A DNA stretch of 32,000 nucleotides from Caldimicrobium thiodismutans. GTDB lineage: Bacteria > Desulfobacterota > Thermodesulfobacteria > Thermodesulfobacteriales > Thermodesulfobacteriaceae. A model generated the notes under the pieces. It did no database searches and was not told where the DNA came from. It saw only the letters and a list, made by a program, of their open reading frames with translations. The translations under genes were made by a program, and so were the position numbers. Below are positions 1 through 32,000 of this stretch, piece after piece; positions within the stretch are counted from its first letter, which is position 1, and each line of letters starts with the position of its first letter. Location: contig NZ_AP014945.1 in NCBI RefSeq assembly GCF_001548275.1, positions 60,001 to 92,000 of the forward strand. The letters run 5' to 3'.

Positions 1-200
1 TACTATTCCCTTCCTAAGTTTTTTTCTATATGTTAGATTTTAAAAAAATTTTTTCAAGAGGTTGTTTAAGTCCCAATCTTTGGTTGAATGTGGGGGCGAA
101 TTACTTTTTAGTTGAAACCTGCCCTGTAAATATTATTCAAAAAATAATTGACCTGGGTTGAGTGTATCTGTCTGTGGCAGGCCTGCCTTAATTAACTACC

Positions 201-404
201 TGTATAAGTTCAGATCCTTACAAGAAAAAAGGAAGGGTGGTAAAAGAGGAATTAGATATCTATACAAGTCTGAAAGTAACACAGGCAATCTTGCCTGTAA
301 AAGTAAATTACACTCCAAGGTATGAAAGTAACACAGACAAGAATGTCTGTGCTACAACATACCCCCAAAAAAATTCAAGGGGTATAAAATTTTAAACCCC
401 TACT
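201..404 (+). repeat. Intergenic modular repeat, copy A (short variant: 5' module, twin hairpin units and G4/C4-flanked AT palindrome; lacks two segments present in copies B and C)
   Basis: Aligns by eye along its whole length with 4649-4863 and with the reverse complement of 30625-30850. Hairpin units at 268-298 and 320-351 are identical to those in the other copies. Confidence 0.85.
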
Positions 405-410
405 ATTTAA

Positions 411-468
411 GTCTCAAAAGATATGGACGCATACAATACATTGACAAGCTTAAAAAGTCTTATATAAT
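411..468 (+). promoter_or_regulatory. Conserved upstream box plus sigma70-type promoter of bioY-purD
   Basis: Box GTCTCAAAAGATATGGACGCATACA at 411-435. -35 TTGACA at 441-446, 16-nt spacer, -10 TATAAT at 463-468. SD AGAGGTG lies 6 nt before the ATG at 496. Confidence 0.7.
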
Positions 469-4017: not shown

Positions 4018-4077
4018 AAATTACATCAATTCATGTGAGAAGTCAATTATTTGTATGCGTCCATATTTTTGAGACTC
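4018..4077 (-). promoter_or_regulatory. Conserved upstream box plus sigma70-type promoter of purK-purE
   Basis: Minus strand reads GAGTCTCAAAAATATGGACGCATACA (4077-4052), then -35 TTGACT (4046-4041), 17-nt spacer, -10 TAATTT (4023-4018). SD AGAGGTG precedes the ATG at 3993. Confidence 0.65.
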
Positions 4078-4133
4078 AAGAGTTTTTTCTACTACTTCTG
4101 TTATAAGAAAATTGAATATGTATAGGAGACATT

Positions 4134-4212
4134 TTGTAGGGACAAACCTATGTGTTTTCCCTCTCACTTTTTTCCACCCTTTCTTTTTCTTGTAAGGATA
4201 TGAACCTATGCA
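4134..4212 (-). repeat. Truncated or variant copy of the intergenic repeat (5' module plus X box, no twin hairpins)
   Basis: Minus strand 4212-4174 reads TTGCATAGGTTCATATCCTTACAAGAAAAAGAAAGGGTGG, which matches the 5' ends of copies A, B and C. 4134-4158 (TTGTAGGGACAAACCTATGTGTTTT) matches 13754-13778. Confidence 0.7.
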
Positions 4213-4617
4213 AAAAAGGTTAGGCTAAATCAAGGTCTTTTTAAAGATAAAAAGTATTGTCTAAATTAAATGAGAGGTCTCTAAAGGAGTGAAGAGGGTA
4301 TGTTCCTGTTTTATCTTTTGTGTTTTATGATTGGAAAAGAGCCTGGGAGTATCCTGAAAGGCCTGTCTGCTAACTGGCAGGATAGAGAAATTTTTAATAC
4401 CAGATGGTTAAGAGAGGGAGATATAAAATCTTTATATGGTAGACTTAAAGAGGGGGTGAAGAAGAGAGGATTTTAAGATATACCAGCGGTTAATTCAGGA
4501 TTCAATAGAGCTTGTCCTTTCCGCTATAGAAGGTAAGCTTGGGCATGTCCCAGAGGAAGCGAGGGAGAGGGGTTGTGGGAAAAGGACAAAGGAGTTCTAA
4601 TTGAAAAAAATATACTT

Positions 4618-4644
4618 GAGTCTCAAAAGGTATGGACGCATATA
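4618..4644 (+). promoter_or_regulatory. Orphan copy of the conserved upstream box (no convincing -10 downstream)
   Basis: GAGTCTCAAAAGGTATGGACGCATATA is followed at the usual distance by TGCATA, which is the first bases of repeat copy B. No TATAAT-like hexamer follows at 15-18 nt. Confidence 0.5.
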
Positions 4645-4648
4645 TAAC

Positions 4649-4958
4649 TGCATAAGTTCATATCCTTACAAGAAAAAGAAAGTGGGGTAAAAGGGGAATT
4701 AGATATCTATACAAGGAAGGCTTTACAAGTCTAAAAGTAACACAGGCAATCTTGCCTGTGGAGGTAAATTACACTCCAAGGTATGAAAGTAACACAGACA
4801 AGAATGTCTGTGCTACAACAGACCCACAAAAAATTCAAGTGGTATAAAATTTTAAACCCCTACTTAAGGAAAGATTTTGCAGATTTTTTATCCTTTCTTT
4901 CCGAAGGGGAACGGGTATGTGGAGAGATTTGTGTTATGGACTAAGAAAAAATCCTATA
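4649..4958 (+). repeat. Intergenic modular repeat, copy B (full-length variant)
   Basis: Roughly nine in ten positions match the reverse complement of 30525-30850 by eye. Contains hairpin units at 4729-4760 and 4781-4812, an AT palindrome at 4838-4861 and an extra ~95-nt 3' module (4864-4958) absent from copy A. Confidence 0.9.
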
Positions 4959-5018
4959 GAGTCTAAAAAGATATGGACGCATACATAAACTTGAAAAGTT
5001 CAAAAGATGGTATATAAT
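4959..5018 (+). promoter_or_regulatory. Conserved upstream box plus strong sigma70-type promoter of tRNA-Pro
   Basis: Box GAGTCTAAAAAGATATGGACGCATACA at 4959-4985. -35 TTGAAA at 4991-4996, 16-nt spacer, -10 TATAAT at 5013-5018. The tRNA starts at 5038. Confidence 0.75.
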
Positions 5019-5037: not shown

Positions 5038-5111
5038 CGGGGCGTAGCGCAGCCTGGCAGCGCACCTGCCTTGGGAGCAGGGGGTCGGCAGTTCAAATCT
5101 GCCCGCCCCGA
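5038..5111 (+). tRNA. tRNA-Pro (anticodon UGG)
   Basis: Manual cloverleaf. Acceptor CGGGGCG/CGCCCCG; D stem GCGC/GCGC; anticodon stem CCTGC/GCAGG with loop CTTGGGA (anticodon TGG at 5072-5074). Variable loop GGGTC; T stem GGCAG/CTGCC with loop TTCAAAT; discriminator A. CCA is not encoded. Confidence 0.95.
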
Positions 5112-5185
5112 TCCTCAAGAATGCAAAGGAACACACTCATAACAAGCAAATATTTGAGTTTGGCCCTGCCAGATGGTTTCTACTC

Positions 5186-5208
5186 AAGTTCATTTTCTTA
5201 CAAAAGAG
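5186..5208 (+). repeat. Degenerate copy of the repeat 5' module directly upstream of the lon-like promoter
   Basis: AAGTTCATTTTCTTACAAAAGAG compared with AAGTTCATATCCTTACAAGAAAA in copies A, B and C. Short and imperfect. Confidence 0.4.
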
Positions 5209-5230
5209 TTTGCAGAAAAAATACTCATTA

Positions 5231-5289
5231 AATCTCAAAAAATATAGACCCATAGCATTTCTTGTTTTTTTAAATTTTTTCCTTAGAAT
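5231..5289 (+). promoter_or_regulatory. Degenerate upstream box plus candidate promoter of the lon-like gene
   Basis: AATCTCAAAAAATATAGACCCATAGCA at 5231-5257. -35 TTGTTT at 5262-5267, 16-nt spacer, -10 TAGAAT at 5284-5289. SD GAGGAG at 5311-5316. Confidence 0.55.
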
Positions 5290-5322: not shown

Positions 5323-7686
5323 ATGCCCTGGAAAAAGATTGAATTTAAAGATCTTAAAATTGAAGCTCAATTTTCAGAGGGAACTTTAGCCTTTCATCCC
5401 GAGGAGCTTTTTCCTCATCAAGAACGTCTTGAAAAGGCCTTTGATCTGGCCCTAAGGATAAAGGATGAGGGATATAATGTTTATGTTTGTGGCCCAAGAG
5501 GTATTGGCAGAACAAGATATACTTTAAAGCGTATTGAAGAGGTAGCCAGTAATTTTCCTACTCCTCCTGATTTATGTTATATAAATAACTTTGAAGATCC
5601 AGCCAGACCAAAATGTCTTCAACTGCCAGCTGGTTATGGAAAGAAACTTGAAGAAGGTCTTGAGGAGGCTTTAAATTTCCTTAAAAGAGAGACCTTTAAA
5701 TCCTTTGAAGGAAAGGACTACGAAGAAGAACTTTCCAAGCTTACAAAAGAAATTGAAGCTGAGAAAGAGAAGGTTTTTGCCGAGCTTACTGATGCAGCTA
5801 AAAAATATAATTTAATGGTTCTTTTTGGACCACAAGGTGTAAAGCTTTTACCTCTCTTTAAGATTCAGGCCCCTGTTTCTGAAGAAGAGCTTTTTAAAGA
5901 TCCCAGGATCCGGGAGGAGTATCAAAAAAGCTTGATTGAATTTGAACCAACCTTTCGTGAATACATGCGGAAACTTCGTGATCTTGATACCGCCTTTGGA
6001 GAAGCCCTTTTTAAATTAAGAGATAAGATTGCTGAAAATCTTGTAAATAAGGCCTTTGAAAGACTTGAAGAAACCTTTCAAACTTTAGAAGAGGTTAAGC
6101 TCTATTTCCAGAGCCTGAAAAAAGAGATAATTAAGAATATTCATCTCTTTATAGAATGGGAAAAGGCTCGAGGCAATATTATGGTGCAGAGTGGAATTAA
6201 TAAGGCCTTAAATATGTTCAGAATTAATCTTTTAGTTGATAATTCGCAAACTCAAGGTGCCCCGGTTATTTATGAGAAAGTCCCAACTCTAAAGGGACTC
6301 TTTGGACAGATTAATTATCGTGCTGAAATGGGAATCCTATATGCGGATCATCTAAGTCTTACCGCAGGAAGTCTTCACAAGGCAAATGGAGGTTTTCTGG
6401 TAATTGATCTCTGGGAGATTTTGAAAAATCCTTATATGTGGATTATTCTAAAAAGAGCGTTACTTCACAAAAAACTCCACCTCATGGGCGGGATGATGGA
6501 GGAAATCCCTGTTCCCCATGTAGGACTTCTGCCTGAACCAGCTCCCTTCACAACTAAGGTTTTTCTAATCGGAGATCCCTATCTCTATTATCTTCTTTCA
6601 ACTTATGATGAAGAATTTGGAGAACTTTTTAAAATTAAGGCTGAATTTGATCCTATTTTACCCTTAGATGAGCTAACAGTTAAAACCTTTCCCAGAATAG
6701 TGAAAAAAATGATTCAGGATGACGGTCTGAAAGAGCTTTCTGCTCAGGGCTTAAATGAACTTTTGAGGTATGCTATTACTGAATCAGGCCATAGAAAAAA
6801 GGTTAAATTTATTTTGGAAGATCTTAAAAATGTATTGAGAGAGGCTAACTACCTTTCTAAAAATCAGGAGATAACTTCAGAAGATATTCAAAGAGCATTA
6901 AAAGAAAAGATAAATCGCATGAACCTCTTAGAGGAAAAGATCAGGGAATATATTAAAGAAGGGAAAATACTTCTTTCTGTTGAGGGAAAAAAGATCGGTC
7001 AGATTAACGGTTTAAGTGTAATTAGCCTTGGAGACTATGCCTTTGGCAGGCCTTCAAGAATCACTGCCTCTGTTTATCCAGGTTCTAAAGGGGTAATCAA
7101 TATTGAAAGAGAAATAGAAATGAGTGGTCCAATTCATACTAAGGGAGTTCTTACCCTTTCATCCTATATTTTTCATCGCTATGGTGAAGATTTTCCTCTT
7201 CAACTTTCCTGCACACTCACCTTTGAGCAAGCCTATGAACCTGTTGAGGGCGATAGTGCTTCTTGCGCAGAACTAATAGCTATCCTCTCTGCCATTGCCC
7301 AGATTCCTTTAAGGCAGGATATTGCTGTCACTGGCTCTATCGATCAATTTGGAAATCTTCAGCCCGTAGGTGGAATTAAAGAGAAGGTGGAAGGGTTTTA
7401 TCGGATCTGTAAAATATTAAATTTCACTGGAAAACAGGGTGTTATAATCCCTGTGCAAAATGTAGATAATCTCCTTTGCGATGAAGAACTTCTTGAAGAT
7501 ATCAAAGGAGAAAGGTTTAATCTCTATTCCGCTGAGACCGTTGATGATGTTATTGAACTTCTTACAGGATTAAAGGCAGAAAAATTTCATAAAAAAGTCT
7601 ATGAAAGATTAAAGAAATTTTACGAACTCTCCAAAGAAACCCCAATTAAGAAGAAAAAAAGAAAAAAATCCCCTAAAAAGAAATAA
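5323..7686 (+). CDS. Lon-like protease (LonB/LonC type): AAA-like domain with long helical insertion plus C-terminal Ser-Lys protease domain
   Basis: 787 aa. C-terminal Lon protease domain has GDSAS (catalytic Ser context) and GGIKEK (Lys). The N-terminal P-loop is degenerate (GPRGIGRT, nt 5491-5514) and the Walker B position reads VIDLWE. Lys-rich tail KKKKRKKSPKKK. Confidence 0.8.
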   Translation: MPWKKIEFKDLKIEAQFSEGTLAFHPEELFPHQERLEKAFDLALRIKDEGYNVYVCGPRGIGRTRYTLKRIEEVASNFPTPPDLCYINNFEDPARPKCLQLPAGYGKKLEEGLEEALNFLKRETFKSFEGKDYEEELSKLTKEIEAEKEKVFAELTDAAKKYNLMVLFGPQGVKLLPLFKIQAPVSEEELFKDPRIREEYQKSLIEFEPTFREYMRKLRDLDTAFGEALFKLRDKIAENLVNKAFERLEETFQTLEEVKLYFQSLKKEIIKNIHLFIEWEKARGNIMVQSGINKALNMFRINLLVDNSQTQGAPVIYEKVPTLKGLFGQINYRAEMGILYADHLSLTAGSLHKANGGFLVIDLWEILKNPYMWIILKRALLHKKLHLMGGMMEEIPVPHVGLLPEPAPFTTKVFLIGDPYLYYLLSTYDEEFGELFKIKAEFDPILPLDELTVKTFPRIVKKMIQDDGLKELSAQGLNELLRYAITESGHRKKVKFILEDLKNVLREANYLSKNQEITSEDIQRALKEKINRMNLLEEKIREYIKEGKILLSVEGKKIGQINGLSVISLGDYAFGRPSRITASVYPGSKGVINIEREIEMSGPIHTKGVLTLSSYIFHRYGEDFPLQLSCTLTFEQAYEPVEGDSASCAELIAILSAIAQIPLRQDIAVTGSIDQFGNLQPVGGIKEKVEGFYRICKILNFTGKQGVIIPVQNVDNLLCDEELLEDIKGERFNLYSAETVDDVIELLTGLKAEKFHKKVYERLKKFYELSKETPIKKKKRKKSPKKK

Positions 7687-13572: not shown

Positions 13573-13612
13573 ATCAACAAAACCCCCAGATAAAACAACC
13601 TCTAAAAAGATA

Positions 13613-13671
13613 ATTTTAGCTTATATTTGACCAAAAGCAAGCCTTGTGTATGCGTCTATAACTTTTGAAAT
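13613..13671 (-). promoter_or_regulatory. Upstream box plus candidate promoter of purM-glyQ-glyS-selB
   Basis: Minus strand reads ATTTCAAAAGTTATAGACGCATACA (13671-13647), then -35 TTGCTT (13640-13635), 16-nt spacer, -10 TAAAAT (13618-13613). Confidence 0.6.
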
Positions 13672-13753
13672 TTAAATCTACCTATTTGGGGCATATCAAT
13701 CTGCTTTACCCTTAAGTTGTATTGCCTACCCTATGTAAATCTCGTAAATCCCC

Positions 13754-13778
13754 TTGTAGGGCAAACATATGTGTTTGC
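13754..13778. promoter_or_regulatory. X box shared with 4134-4158; contains the perfect palindrome GCAAACA-TATG-TGTTTGC (13761-13778)
   Basis: TTGTAGGGCAAACATATGTGTTTGC compared with TTGTAGGGACAAACCTATGTGTTTT at 4134-4158. 7-bp inverted arms with a 4-nt centre, located in the divergent purM/topA control region. Confidence 0.45.
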
Positions 13779-13879
13779 AAGCTGTAGGTCTTTGCTTTAT
13801 TGGCAGACACTAAAACCTTTTGCGGATCAATTTTGTAAGGAAAATATTATTCAGAAGGTATCTATTTCATTGATAGAAA

Positions 13880-13938
13880 GGTCTCAAAAAATATGGATGC
13901 ATATATGTAGTTGACGAAACCAAATTTGCTATTAATTT
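13880..13938 (+). promoter_or_regulatory. Upstream box plus candidate promoter of topA-cbiL-cbiF-cbiGH-orf-cobU
   Basis: GGTCTCAAAAAATATGGATGCATATA at 13880-13905. -35 TTGACG at 13911-13916, 16-nt spacer, -10 TAATTT at 13933-13938. The ATG at 13948 is only ~10 nt after the -10 and has no SD. Confidence 0.6.
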
Positions 13939-13947
13939 AAATTTTCA

Positions 13948-30463: not shown

Positions 30464-30524
30464 TAAATATACCCTAAAAATTTCTTTTTCAAAGTTTTGT
30501 ATAATTCCATATCTTTTGAGACTC
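30464..30524 (-). promoter_or_regulatory. Upstream box (partly degenerate) plus candidate promoter of the cobT-cobS-cobQ-cbiB-cobD-cbiA operon
   Basis: Minus strand reads GAGTCTCAAAAGATATGGAATTATACA (30524-30498), then -35 TTGAAA (30492-30487), then TATATT or TATTTA 15-17 nt downstream. Confidence 0.55.
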
Positions 30525-30850
30525 TATAGGATTTTTTCTTTGGGCCTAACACAAATTAAATCTTTCCACATACCCGTTCCCCTTCGGAAAGAAAGGATAA
30601 AAAATCTGCAAAATCTTTCCTTAAGTAGGGGTTTAAAATTTTATACCCCTTGAATTTTTTGTGGGTCTGTTGTAGCACAGACATTCTTGTCTGTGTTTCT
30701 TTCATACATGGGAGTGTAATTTGCCTCCACAGGCAAGATTGCCTGTGTTACTTTCAGACTTGTATAACCTCCCTTGTATAGATATCTAATTCCCCTTTTG
30801 CCCCACTTCCTTTTTCTTGTAAGGATATGAATTTATGCAAAGGTTTAATT
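30525..30850 (-). repeat. Intergenic modular repeat, copy C (full-length variant, inverted relative to A and B)
   Basis: The reverse complement aligns end to end with 4649-4958. Hairpin units at 30676-30707 and 30728-30759; AT palindrome at 30627-30650. Confidence 0.9.
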
Positions 30851-31640: not shown

Positions 31641-32000
31641 TTATTCAACTACTATTTCTATTTTTTCTATTTTATTCCAAAGATAGCCTGCTGGATTCCA
31701 CAAACTTTCAAAGGGCTGAGATTCACCAATACTATTTGTAGCTCTTGCCATTAATACATATTTACCAGATTTTGTGGGTTTAAAACTATAAAACCATTGA
31801 ATCCATGAGTATCTACCTAAATCTTTGCCAAGCCTTGTGGTATGCCATGTCGTTCCTCCATCTATAGATACAATTACATCTTTTATACTATATCCCCCTG
31901 AAAAAGCTATTCCCATAATATTAATTTCTCTACCCCTTTTAAAGATAGCTCCATCCTGAGGTTCAATTATCAGAGATCTTGTAGTCATTCTACTAACGGG
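31641..32000 (-). CDS. Sulfite-oxidase-family molybdopterin oxidoreductase (SorA/SoxC-like), C-terminal part only
   Basis: The visible part matches the Moco-oxidoreductase dimerisation domain (VSIDGGTTWHTTRL, ARATNSIGESQP, WNPAGYLWN). The reading frame stays open to the window edge, so the ATG at 31988 is probably internal. Confidence 0.7.
   Translation of the reverse strand, partial: PVSRMTTRSLIIEPQDGAIFKRGREINIMGIAFSGGYSIKDVIVSIDGGTTWHTTRLGKDLGRYSWIQWFYSFKPTKSGKYVLMARATNSIGESQPFESLWNPAGYLWNKIEKIEIVVE

Follow-up and report, generated by a model that had tools for sequence, protein, structure and literature searches.

The 32,000-nt stretch of Caldimicrobium DNA analysed here (the window) carries copies A, B and C of one repeated non-coding element in the spacers upstream of bioY, of its sole tRNA gene (tRNA-Pro, 5038-5111) and of cobT. 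Shorter relatives lie upstream of purK and lon. The three copies, first reported in the initial annotation, are real: over a 282-nt stretch, B and C agree at 95% of positions (92% over 354 nt when the conserved 'box' at the promoter side is included), and copy A is ~86% identical to B and to C. Alignment also agrees with the statement that copy A lacks a small segment (14 nt) and a 3' module of ~95 nt, and a -35/-10 pair, which is of sigma70 type, was found after each copy as described. The box (AGTCTCAAAAGATATGGACGCATA, at most 3 mismatches) has five matches and the 5' module four, versus none expected for either and none in shuffled sequence. [quoted passage not shown]

Related sequence was surveyed over ~110 kb in total, the window and the fetched loci taken together. 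One sibling strain is represented by L001, a 239-kb contig of GCA_017880035.1 (identical Lon, 99.4-99.6% identity to the window), and a second by the loci L010 and L017 on the Joint Genome Institute (JGI) contig Ga0401068_000165, which was reached via a BioY search (position 32000 of the window is 2650 of L017). The loci L011-L014 belong to a sister species with a BioY identity of 80%, and L006 to an uncultured Caldimicrobium, the nearest species genome in the collection searched (Lon identity 90%). Copies on other contigs were traced through the translation of window 4783-4941, searched against a protein collection. This search returned four small 'proteins', including the hypothetical protein WP_153303643.1 of cultured Caldimicrobium thiodismutans. 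Open reading frames (ORFs) of 49-58 amino acids called inside copies, which we judge to be spurious, led us to the element on other contigs; the initial annotation had stated that the copies hold no ORF. None of the members carries a transposase gene. Confinement to the three original loci, named at the outset as an outcome that would speak against mobility, was not what we found: additional copies lie in L001, L017, L018 and L019, at least three of them full copies on related contigs, and sites vary between strains.

Six full copies, each from its own locus, were aligned (A, B, C, D, H in L018 and I in L019). In all of them the homologous part begins at precisely TGCATAAG and stops at precisely ATACA. 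To its left the flanks bear no relation to one another, and downstream of ATACA five variable nucleotides are followed by a TTGACA-like hexamer. The initial annotation had drawn the right limits of the copies short of the box; since family homology reaches ATACA, the box lies inside the element (limits in Table 1). A full copy of ~340 nt starts with (N)TGCATAAGTTCATATC.. and ends with ..GATATGGACGCATACA, with TG..CA tips, and its termini are imperfect inverted repeats: comparing TGCATAAGTTCATATCTTT of copy D with the reverse-complemented right end TGTATAAGTCTATATCTTT gives 16 identical bases out of 19, and the left and right ends of copy B match in this way at 15 of 25. A repeat-consensus scan recovered both ends in every copy. 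The right end reads ..ACA in nearly all copies and ..ACC in a partial copy of L018. About 49 nt on the left and about 45 nt on the right are common to the members, and the interiors differ between subfamilies. Full copies contain two tandem hairpin units, whose stems differ by a compensatory G:C to A:T change, and an AT-rich palindrome.

Copy D provides a site that is filled in one strain and empty in another. L001 reads ..GGTGC TGGTA (A TGCATAAG ... CTTATACA) TGGTA TTTACA.., with the insert in brackets, and L010 reads ..GGTGC TGGTA TTTACA... The insert measures 342 nt, the pentamer TGGTA stands on both sides of it in L001 and once in L010, and the flanks are identical save one aligned base, 30 nt downstream. 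The check for empty sites and target duplications proposed with the initial annotation thus had a positive outcome. Because this insert contains the box, the box is the right terminal repeat of the element and not a separate promoter element. Copy B is present in the window and absent from L001 and L010, and copy A occurs in the window, L001 and L010 and is missing upstream of the orthologous bioY promoter of the sister species, whose purK promoter likewise has no counterpart of the short member E. A, C and E were found in every sibling strain examined. Near-matching hexamers flank copy C (AACCTT, 30845-30840; AAACTT, 30497-30492; 5/6), a mini member in L019 (CAATTC/AAATTC; 5/6) and the composite copy I (4/6), and are read as decayed duplications.

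Terminal inverted repeats, a target duplication, presence or absence among strains that are ~99.5% identical, and subfamilies with shared ends and varied interiors together identify the repeat as, probably, a MITE family of a hot-spring Caldimicrobium species (Thermodesulfobacteriota). It would be moved by a DDE transposase acting in trans, with insertion in one orientation beside the -35, on its upstream side. The suggestion of a non-autonomous, MITE-like element was therefore well founded. Three features of a MITE were found here: inverted repeats, a duplication demonstrated by a filled and an empty site, and small size in many copies that carry no transposase gene.

Over the ~110 kb surveyed, the family comprises at least six full copies and at least eight short or solo members, with member sizes of 78-396 nt; nine right ends lie in the window. 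Mini members measure 78-124 nt (upstream of lon, and its 124-nt homologue at L019 6758-6635), the E type 161-260 nt (upstream of purK, and L019 7121-7378) and the hairpin-bearing type about 235-396 nt. The truncated relatives reported upstream of purK and lon are genuine members of the family; what was taken for a 5' module at purK (4212-4164) forms the left end of a short member, 161 nt long, which terminates at 4052 in the purK box. Its left 49 nt are 88% identical to copy B and its right end is the box. The interiors of both E-type members of the window share the motif TTGTAGGG(A)CAAAC(C/A)TATGTGTTT (4127-4157 and 13753-13780). The second of these is decayed. The whole segment 13647-13850 is missing from the orthologous spacer in L006, which corresponds to 13573-13947, is ~180 nt shorter and holds no boxes. 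To the left of copy B, 90 nt still show similarity to the right-hand portion of an element, with a local alignment score of 52 versus a shuffle mean of 27 (standard deviation 3.8). A 58-amino-acid ORF at 4300-4476, called as a gene in L001, lies inside apparently decayed element DNA. Copy I shows two additions (L019 9801-9830 and 10149-10202): a solo left end, which precedes its own left end by 36 nt, and 54 nt of extra sequence inserted inside. CTCCC occurs twice around this copy, once 2 nt ahead of the solo left end and once immediately past the right end.

Table 1. Members of the element family, their parts, adjacent promoters and the REP features of L004 (window coordinates unless a locus is named)
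Feature	Position	Strand	Description
Copy A	201..435	+	235 nt; left end TGTATAAGTTC.., right end ..GGACGCATACA; alignments show no 14-nt segment and no ~95-nt module
Copy B	4649..4985	+	337 nt, full-length; missing in two sibling strains (L001, L010)
Copy C	30498..30839	-	342 nt, full-length; upstream of cobT; also in L017 (L010 strain)
Copy D	L001 841-501	-	342-nt insert; about 4.2 kb left of window start
Short member E	4052..4212	-	161 nt; upstream of purK; ends as in B, interior differs
Mini member	5181..5258 (approximate)	+	~78 nt; upstream of lon; left-end-like AAGTTCATTTTCTTACAAAAG plus right end/box
Relic right part of an older member	4556..4644	+	Left of copy B; ends in 'left box' 4619-4644
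Decayed E-type member	13647..13850 (left boundary approximate)	-	Right end 13670-13647 abuts promoter of minus-strand operon
Solo right end/box	13880..13905	+	5 nt upstream of TTGACG -35 of topA-cbi operon
Degenerate right-end-like box	63..86	-	5 nt upstream of TTGAAA -35 of divergent phoH promoter
Copy G	L017 220-335		Cut by IS110-family element right after hairpin 1
Left terminal inverted repeat of copy B	4649..4673	+	TGCATAAGTTCATATCCTTACAAGA
Right terminal inverted repeat of copy B	4961..4985	+	..GTCTAAAAAGATATGGACGCATACA; the 'box' of the initial annotation
Two tandem hairpin units	4737-4760, 4789-4812 (4737..4812)	+	Each GTAAC-ACAGRCA-loop-TGYCTGT-G; REP-like
AT-rich palindrome with G4 and C4 flanks	4839..4860	+	On opposite strand a terminator-like hairpin plus T-run
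Optional ~95-nt module	4865..4958	+	In B, C, D, H, I; not in A
Resident bioY promoter	441..468	+	TTGACA, 16-nt spacer, TATAAT; starts 5 nt past copy A right end
Resident tRNA-Pro promoter	4991..5018	+	TTGAAA, 16-nt spacer, TATAAT; 5 nt past copy B right end
Resident cobT promoter-like pair	30464..30492	-	TTGAAA, 17-nt spacer, TATTTA; 5 nt past copy C right end
Resident purK promoter	4018..4046	-	TTGACT, 17-nt spacer, TAATTT; 5 nt past member E right end
REPs of L004	23-49, 598-625, 2323-2350		
Y1_Tnp (RAYT-like) gene of L004	56-592	-	

The promoters next to the element are resident and were not carried in by it, because the same -35 and -10 are kept at the empty sites of D and B and at the bioY and purK promoters of the sister species. 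At the empty D site of L010 the -35 (TTTACA) and the -10 are already there, and the tRNA-Pro promoter is present in the empty-site strains (L001, L010) and in the sister species. Alignment of bioY and purK with the sister species runs from the -35 through the gene and breaks at the -35, upstream of which the sister species has other sequence, including GTAG-type repetitive extragenic palindromes (REPs).

We then analysed the position of 13 independent right ends and 11 left ends relative to promoters. A strict -35/-10 pair at an offset of 5 +/- 1 nt was found at 8/13 right ends and 0/11 left ends, versus a background of 0.7-0.8% of positions; the -10 of cobT (TATTTA) fails this strict definition. 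TTG stands at offset 4-6 after 12 of the 13 right ends, the exception being copy D with TTTACA. None of the 11 left ends has an outward promoter or promoter-like site. The spacing from right end to -35 equals the length of the target duplication. This one-orientation position, 5 bases upstream of the -35, suggests promoter-targeted insertion, and since such precision and strand bias would be hard to obtain from selection in a compact genome, we infer that the upstream edge of -35 hexamers is a preferred target. The five nucleotides between copy A and the bioY -35 vary between strains (ATACA at window 436-440, TACAA at L001 5455-5459). At the tRNA-Pro and rplU promoters of the sister species (L011 7340-7395 and 7795-7850), the -35 is again preceded, at a distance of 5 nt, by a box that resembles the right end but has diverged; a common AAAACAAATTTTRSATAGAAGGATACA segment precedes both, which suggests a related but different subfamily in that species.

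The fixed position of the box could also be read as that of a host regulatory module, in which the box is a host-factor site or UP-like element at about -43 to -66, its spacing is maintained by selection and the element is a vehicle or a duplicated upstream region. The box does occupy one position upstream of many promoters, including strong ones such as tRNA-Pro and, in the sister species, rplU, and the tRNA-Pro box is conserved between the two species. However, bioY, purK and topA-region promoters of related species work without it, and the box at the D site is present in one strain and absent from another with identical flanks there. The box is moreover an inverted copy of the left end, and selection alone leaves unexplained why the spacing equals the duplication length. 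We consider this explanation unlikely, while a role of the box in regulation is compatible with a transposon origin.

How the MITE family would spread can be outlined from its ends and its placement. A DDE transposase supplied in trans, most plausibly TnsB/IS1202-like in view of the TG..CA ends and the 5-bp duplication, would insert the element in a single orientation, against the upstream edge of sigma70-type -35 hexamers. Insertion duplicates 5 (possibly 6) bp of target. The target would be chosen either by its TTGAMA sequence or via contact with a protein bound there. Repeated hits on one promoter would stack copies, the youngest closest to the -35, in keeping with copy B, which has an older right end on one side and the tRNA-Pro -35 on the other. 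Recombination between such recurring right ends can subsequently remove copies. The interior, with its two REP-like hairpins, AT palindrome and optional ~95-nt module, is regarded as cargo, and shorter members of 78-161 nt retain the ends alone. More tentatively, the transposase or a partner protein may read promoter DNA or the promoter-bound RNA polymerase/sigma and thereby direct integration, in one orientation, to exactly the upstream edge of the -35, which we regard as possible rather than probable.

Several observations weigh against the MITE family as outlined here. No autonomous partner or transposase gene with these ends was found in the ~110 kb of related sequence. A perfect duplication was proven by an empty site for copy D only, where one extra base stands between duplication and TG, and no clear duplication was seen at A, B, H, E or the E-type member of L019. 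The direction of change at copy B is ambiguous: the empty allele equals the product of a single crossover within TATGGACGCATA between the older box (4619-4644) and the right end of B, so B may have been lost in L001 and L010 and not gained in the window. The left tip is TGT in copy A and TGC in the other six left ends. IS1202 and Tn7 ends have a second, internal copy of the inverted repeat, in IS1202 elements 7-10 bp from each end; here a candidate ~24 nt inside the left end (AATTAGATATCTATACAAGG, 14/20) is of marginal significance (p about 0.04), and the right end yielded none. Selection in a compact genome could account for part of the promoter adjacency, and one decayed ~95-nt copy (L018 ~7210-7300), the sole exception seen, has its right end away from any -35. 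Finally, L018 and L019, whose membership of the species is presumed, have a GC content of 39-42% versus 36.5% for the window. As a side observation, the 100 nt to the left of copy B (4560-4660) are only 91-93% identical to L001 and L010, versus about 99.4% elsewhere, which may reflect gene conversion among repeated right ends.

The search for a mobilising enzyme extended beyond the element itself. The Pfam lists for the loci that were fetched contain no gene for a TnsB-like transposase, which would be about 440-460 amino acids long. BLAST against plasmids and phages gave no match to the element, and scans of viral contigs gave none for the left end and two chance matches, in coding regions, for the box. 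The only transposase gene seen encodes an RNA-guided enzyme of the IS110 family (L017 340-1563, minus strand; NF033542, 242 bits), ~1.1 kb past the right end of the window in the sibling strain, and to that extent the earlier statement that no transposase flanks the element has to be amended. The gene abuts copy G, truncated right after hairpin 1 (..CCTGTGGAG/TCAAC). At its far side, the junction ..GTAGGAG/GTAAATATG leads into the Shine-Dalgarno sequence and start codon of a Mo-oxidoreductase gene, and repeats the GGAGGTAAAT of the break point in intact copies, by coincidence or as a target. Rfam gave no match to the non-coding region of the IS110 element. As mobiliser of the repeat we rejected the IS110-family transposase: the targets of the element share no long common sequence, and with the IS110 family neither inverted repeats nor a variable duplication of 5 bp would be expected. 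Two readings of the box were rejected as well: the box as a genus-wide promoter element, as orthologous promoters in L006 and L011 have no box, and box plus -35 as a dif-like XerC/D site, where direct comparison left only CGCATA, inside the element, resembling the XerC arm.

The hairpins raise the question whether the element is of the REP type. Each unit has a GTAA/GTAG tetranucleotide plus a CACAGRCA stem, which is the make-up of a GTAG-type REP, a tetranucleotide followed by a GC-rich hairpin. No match to the hairpin-unit pattern was found in 185,579 species genomes; the JGI metagenomes gave two unrelated ones, of which one is uninformative and the other a REP beside a gene like that for a REP-associated tyrosine transposase (RAYT). 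The unrelated high-GC contig concerned, L004, holds three near-identical hairpins (GTAGCACAGACAATCCTGTCTGTG), two of them flanking a Y1_Tnp gene (PF01797, E = 1e-6) in a REP/RAYT arrangement; a REP other than these two lies with a RAYT pseudogene fragment upstream of mraZ. Hairpin unit 2 of the element reads, on the minus strand, GTAGCACAGACATTCTTGTCTGTG, nearly the same as the L004 REPs. Based on this likeness, the hairpins are taken to be REP-like cargo; they do not explain the spread of the whole element. GTAG-type REP/REPIN repeats (GGTAGCCGCAAGCTTTAGCTTGCG) stand immediately upstream of promoters in related species (L011 7110-7350 and 7650-7760; L006 9690-9880 and 18356), while none occurs in the window; they and the element appear to fill the same niche in different species. 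REP-type palindromes are among the known targets of IS110-family elements. The insertion beside hairpin 1 of copy G is compatible with the hairpins being a recognised target, as IS110 elements were reported to select specific target sites (PMC11187229).

A repeat of the bacterial interspersed mosaic element (BIME) type, spread by a RAYT (Y1) acting on the GTAA/GTAG-flanked hairpins with the rest as mosaic filler, as in Escherichia coli BIMEs, would accommodate the resemblance of unit 2 to REPs beside a Y1_Tnp gene, the IS110-family cut right after hairpin 1 and the GTAG-type REPs in the same niches of related Caldimicrobium species. Yet the hairpins are direct repeats and not inverted doublets, they never occur outside element copies in the ~110 kb, and short members keep the ends without any hairpins. 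Inverted repeats with a 5-bp duplication are foreign to Y1/RAYT transposition, tblastn with the L004 RAYT found nothing, and Y1 genes are absent from the window and from the Pfam lists of the loci. The REP/RAYT idea of the initial annotation thus proved a partial lead, and as an account of the whole element we judge it very unlikely.

The initial annotation had raised the possibility of a mobile promoter or recombining cassette, in which the spreading unit includes the -35/-10 and installs a promoter before new genes. Homologous upstream regions do stand before non-homologous genes, as described for putative mobile promoters (PMC3575422), and past the box the promoters of bioY and tRNA-Pro agree to 64%. 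For A, B, D and E, however, promoter delivery is contradicted by the empty sites and sister-species orthologues with their own -35/-10, and ATACA, where the family homology ends, lies 5 nt short of the -35, so that we regard this explanation as highly improbable. Least credible of all is a multi-copy structured non-coding RNA gene: the sequence folds better than shuffled controls (z = -3.25) and the two units differ by a compensatory change, but the opposite strand folds equally well (z = -3.37), as expected for DNA palindromes, the Rfam covariance search gave only tRNA-Pro at gathering score and nothing credible up to E = 10, the left end has no upstream promoter, no forward terminator lies in the element, the hairpins are invariant across copies and hence show no covariation, and the element stands upstream of the -35 and so outside the adjacent transcript.

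Two further observations concern genes downstream of copies C and D. The mechanical call of the cobT ORF starts at 30464 and overlaps the -10 box, while the gene call in the sibling strain is 12 codons shorter; 30428 is probably the true start. Exact-protein look-ups for BioY, CobT and two small proteins found no record, owing to differences between strains or a wrong start codon; the cobT start accounts for the CobT case. Downstream of copy D, the T2SSE/MshEN ATPase gene (L001 459-500; L010 5291-5332) has a TAAATT -10 only 8 nt before its ATG and no Shine-Dalgarno sequence, and its mRNA may be leaderless.

The MITE family has not been described before. It is ordinary in kind and unusual in its placement against promoters. 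For annotation, the element accounts for most of the intergenic DNA of the window and marks the small 'hypothetical proteins' within copies as spurious. If the placement is mechanistic, a transposase that reads promoters or bound polymerase would represent a new mode of target selection, by which sequence upstream of many promoters could be rewired at once and which might be put to use to mark or trap promoters. Over time, stacked transposon ends would then take the place of the DNA that lies upstream of most promoters in the genome. As the family also occurs in cultured Caldimicrobium thiodismutans, the idea can be tested there.

Among known systems, bacterial MITEs such as Correia/CREE, ERIC, RUP, BOX and bcr1 are likewise small, non-coding, intergenic, multi-copy and strain-variable, have inverted repeats and target duplications, fall into subfamilies whose interiors are modular, and insert beside or within each other. 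Correia elements are defined by a TA target duplication, 26-bp inverted repeats and promoters of their own; the element described here differs from them in its TGGTA duplication and its resident promoters. The Tn3-derived inverted-repeat miniature elements (TIMEs) have about 38-bp inverted repeats that begin with GGGG and a 5-bp duplication, of which only the duplication length agrees, as our ends begin with TG. REP, REPIN and BIME sequences share the GTAA/GTAG tetranucleotide with GC-rich stem hairpins and the extragenic mosaic arrangement; here, in contrast, the hairpins are direct repeats that never stand free and ride inside an element bounded by inverted repeats and a duplication; a RAYT was not seen. 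Ty3, a eukaryotic retrotransposon, integrates at RNA polymerase III promoters in yeast through a known TFIIIB interaction. Like our element it sits at a fixed position relative to a transcription-initiation complex; the TFIIIB-type interaction is that of Ty3, whereas the placement described here is read from sequence. Putative mobile promoters (PMC3575422) share similar upstream regions before unrelated genes and differ in that the conserved unit here ends 5 nt before the -35 and the promoters are resident. Placement at a fixed distance and in a fixed orientation beside the -35 is described for no MITE in a review of bacterial MITEs (PMC10969869), nor in the other bacterial MITE literature consulted.

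The closest parallel is the IS1202 family, with TGT/ACA ends, imperfect inverted repeats of 24-26 bp and a 5-bp duplication, whose members lie in fixed orientation exactly 5 bp from a XerC site; for the ISAjo2/ISAba32 subgroup, contact between its TnsB-like transposase and XerC bound at dif-like sites has been proposed (PMC10132070; bioRxiv 10.1101/2022.12.17.520857). IS1202 elements are autonomous, 1.5 kb long and target XerC/D (dif-like) sites, whereas the members described here are non-coding, 78-342 nt long and neighbour a -35 with a -10 at 16-17 nt, which does not have the make-up of a dif-like site. Most left ends here read TGC, an internal second binding site is not clearly present and an IS1202-type transposase was not found. 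What agrees with the ISAjo2/ISAba32 elements are the TG(T)..ACA ends, imperfect repeats of about 20-26 bp, a 5 (or 5-6) bp duplication and one particular end held exactly 5 bp from a defined site in fixed orientation. We take this as an apparent resemblance in behaviour and do not claim membership. Should insertion indeed be directed by promoters, the family would be the counterpart, at promoters, of IS1202 elements, which target XerC-bound dif sites, or of yeast Ty3 with its RNA polymerase III promoters.

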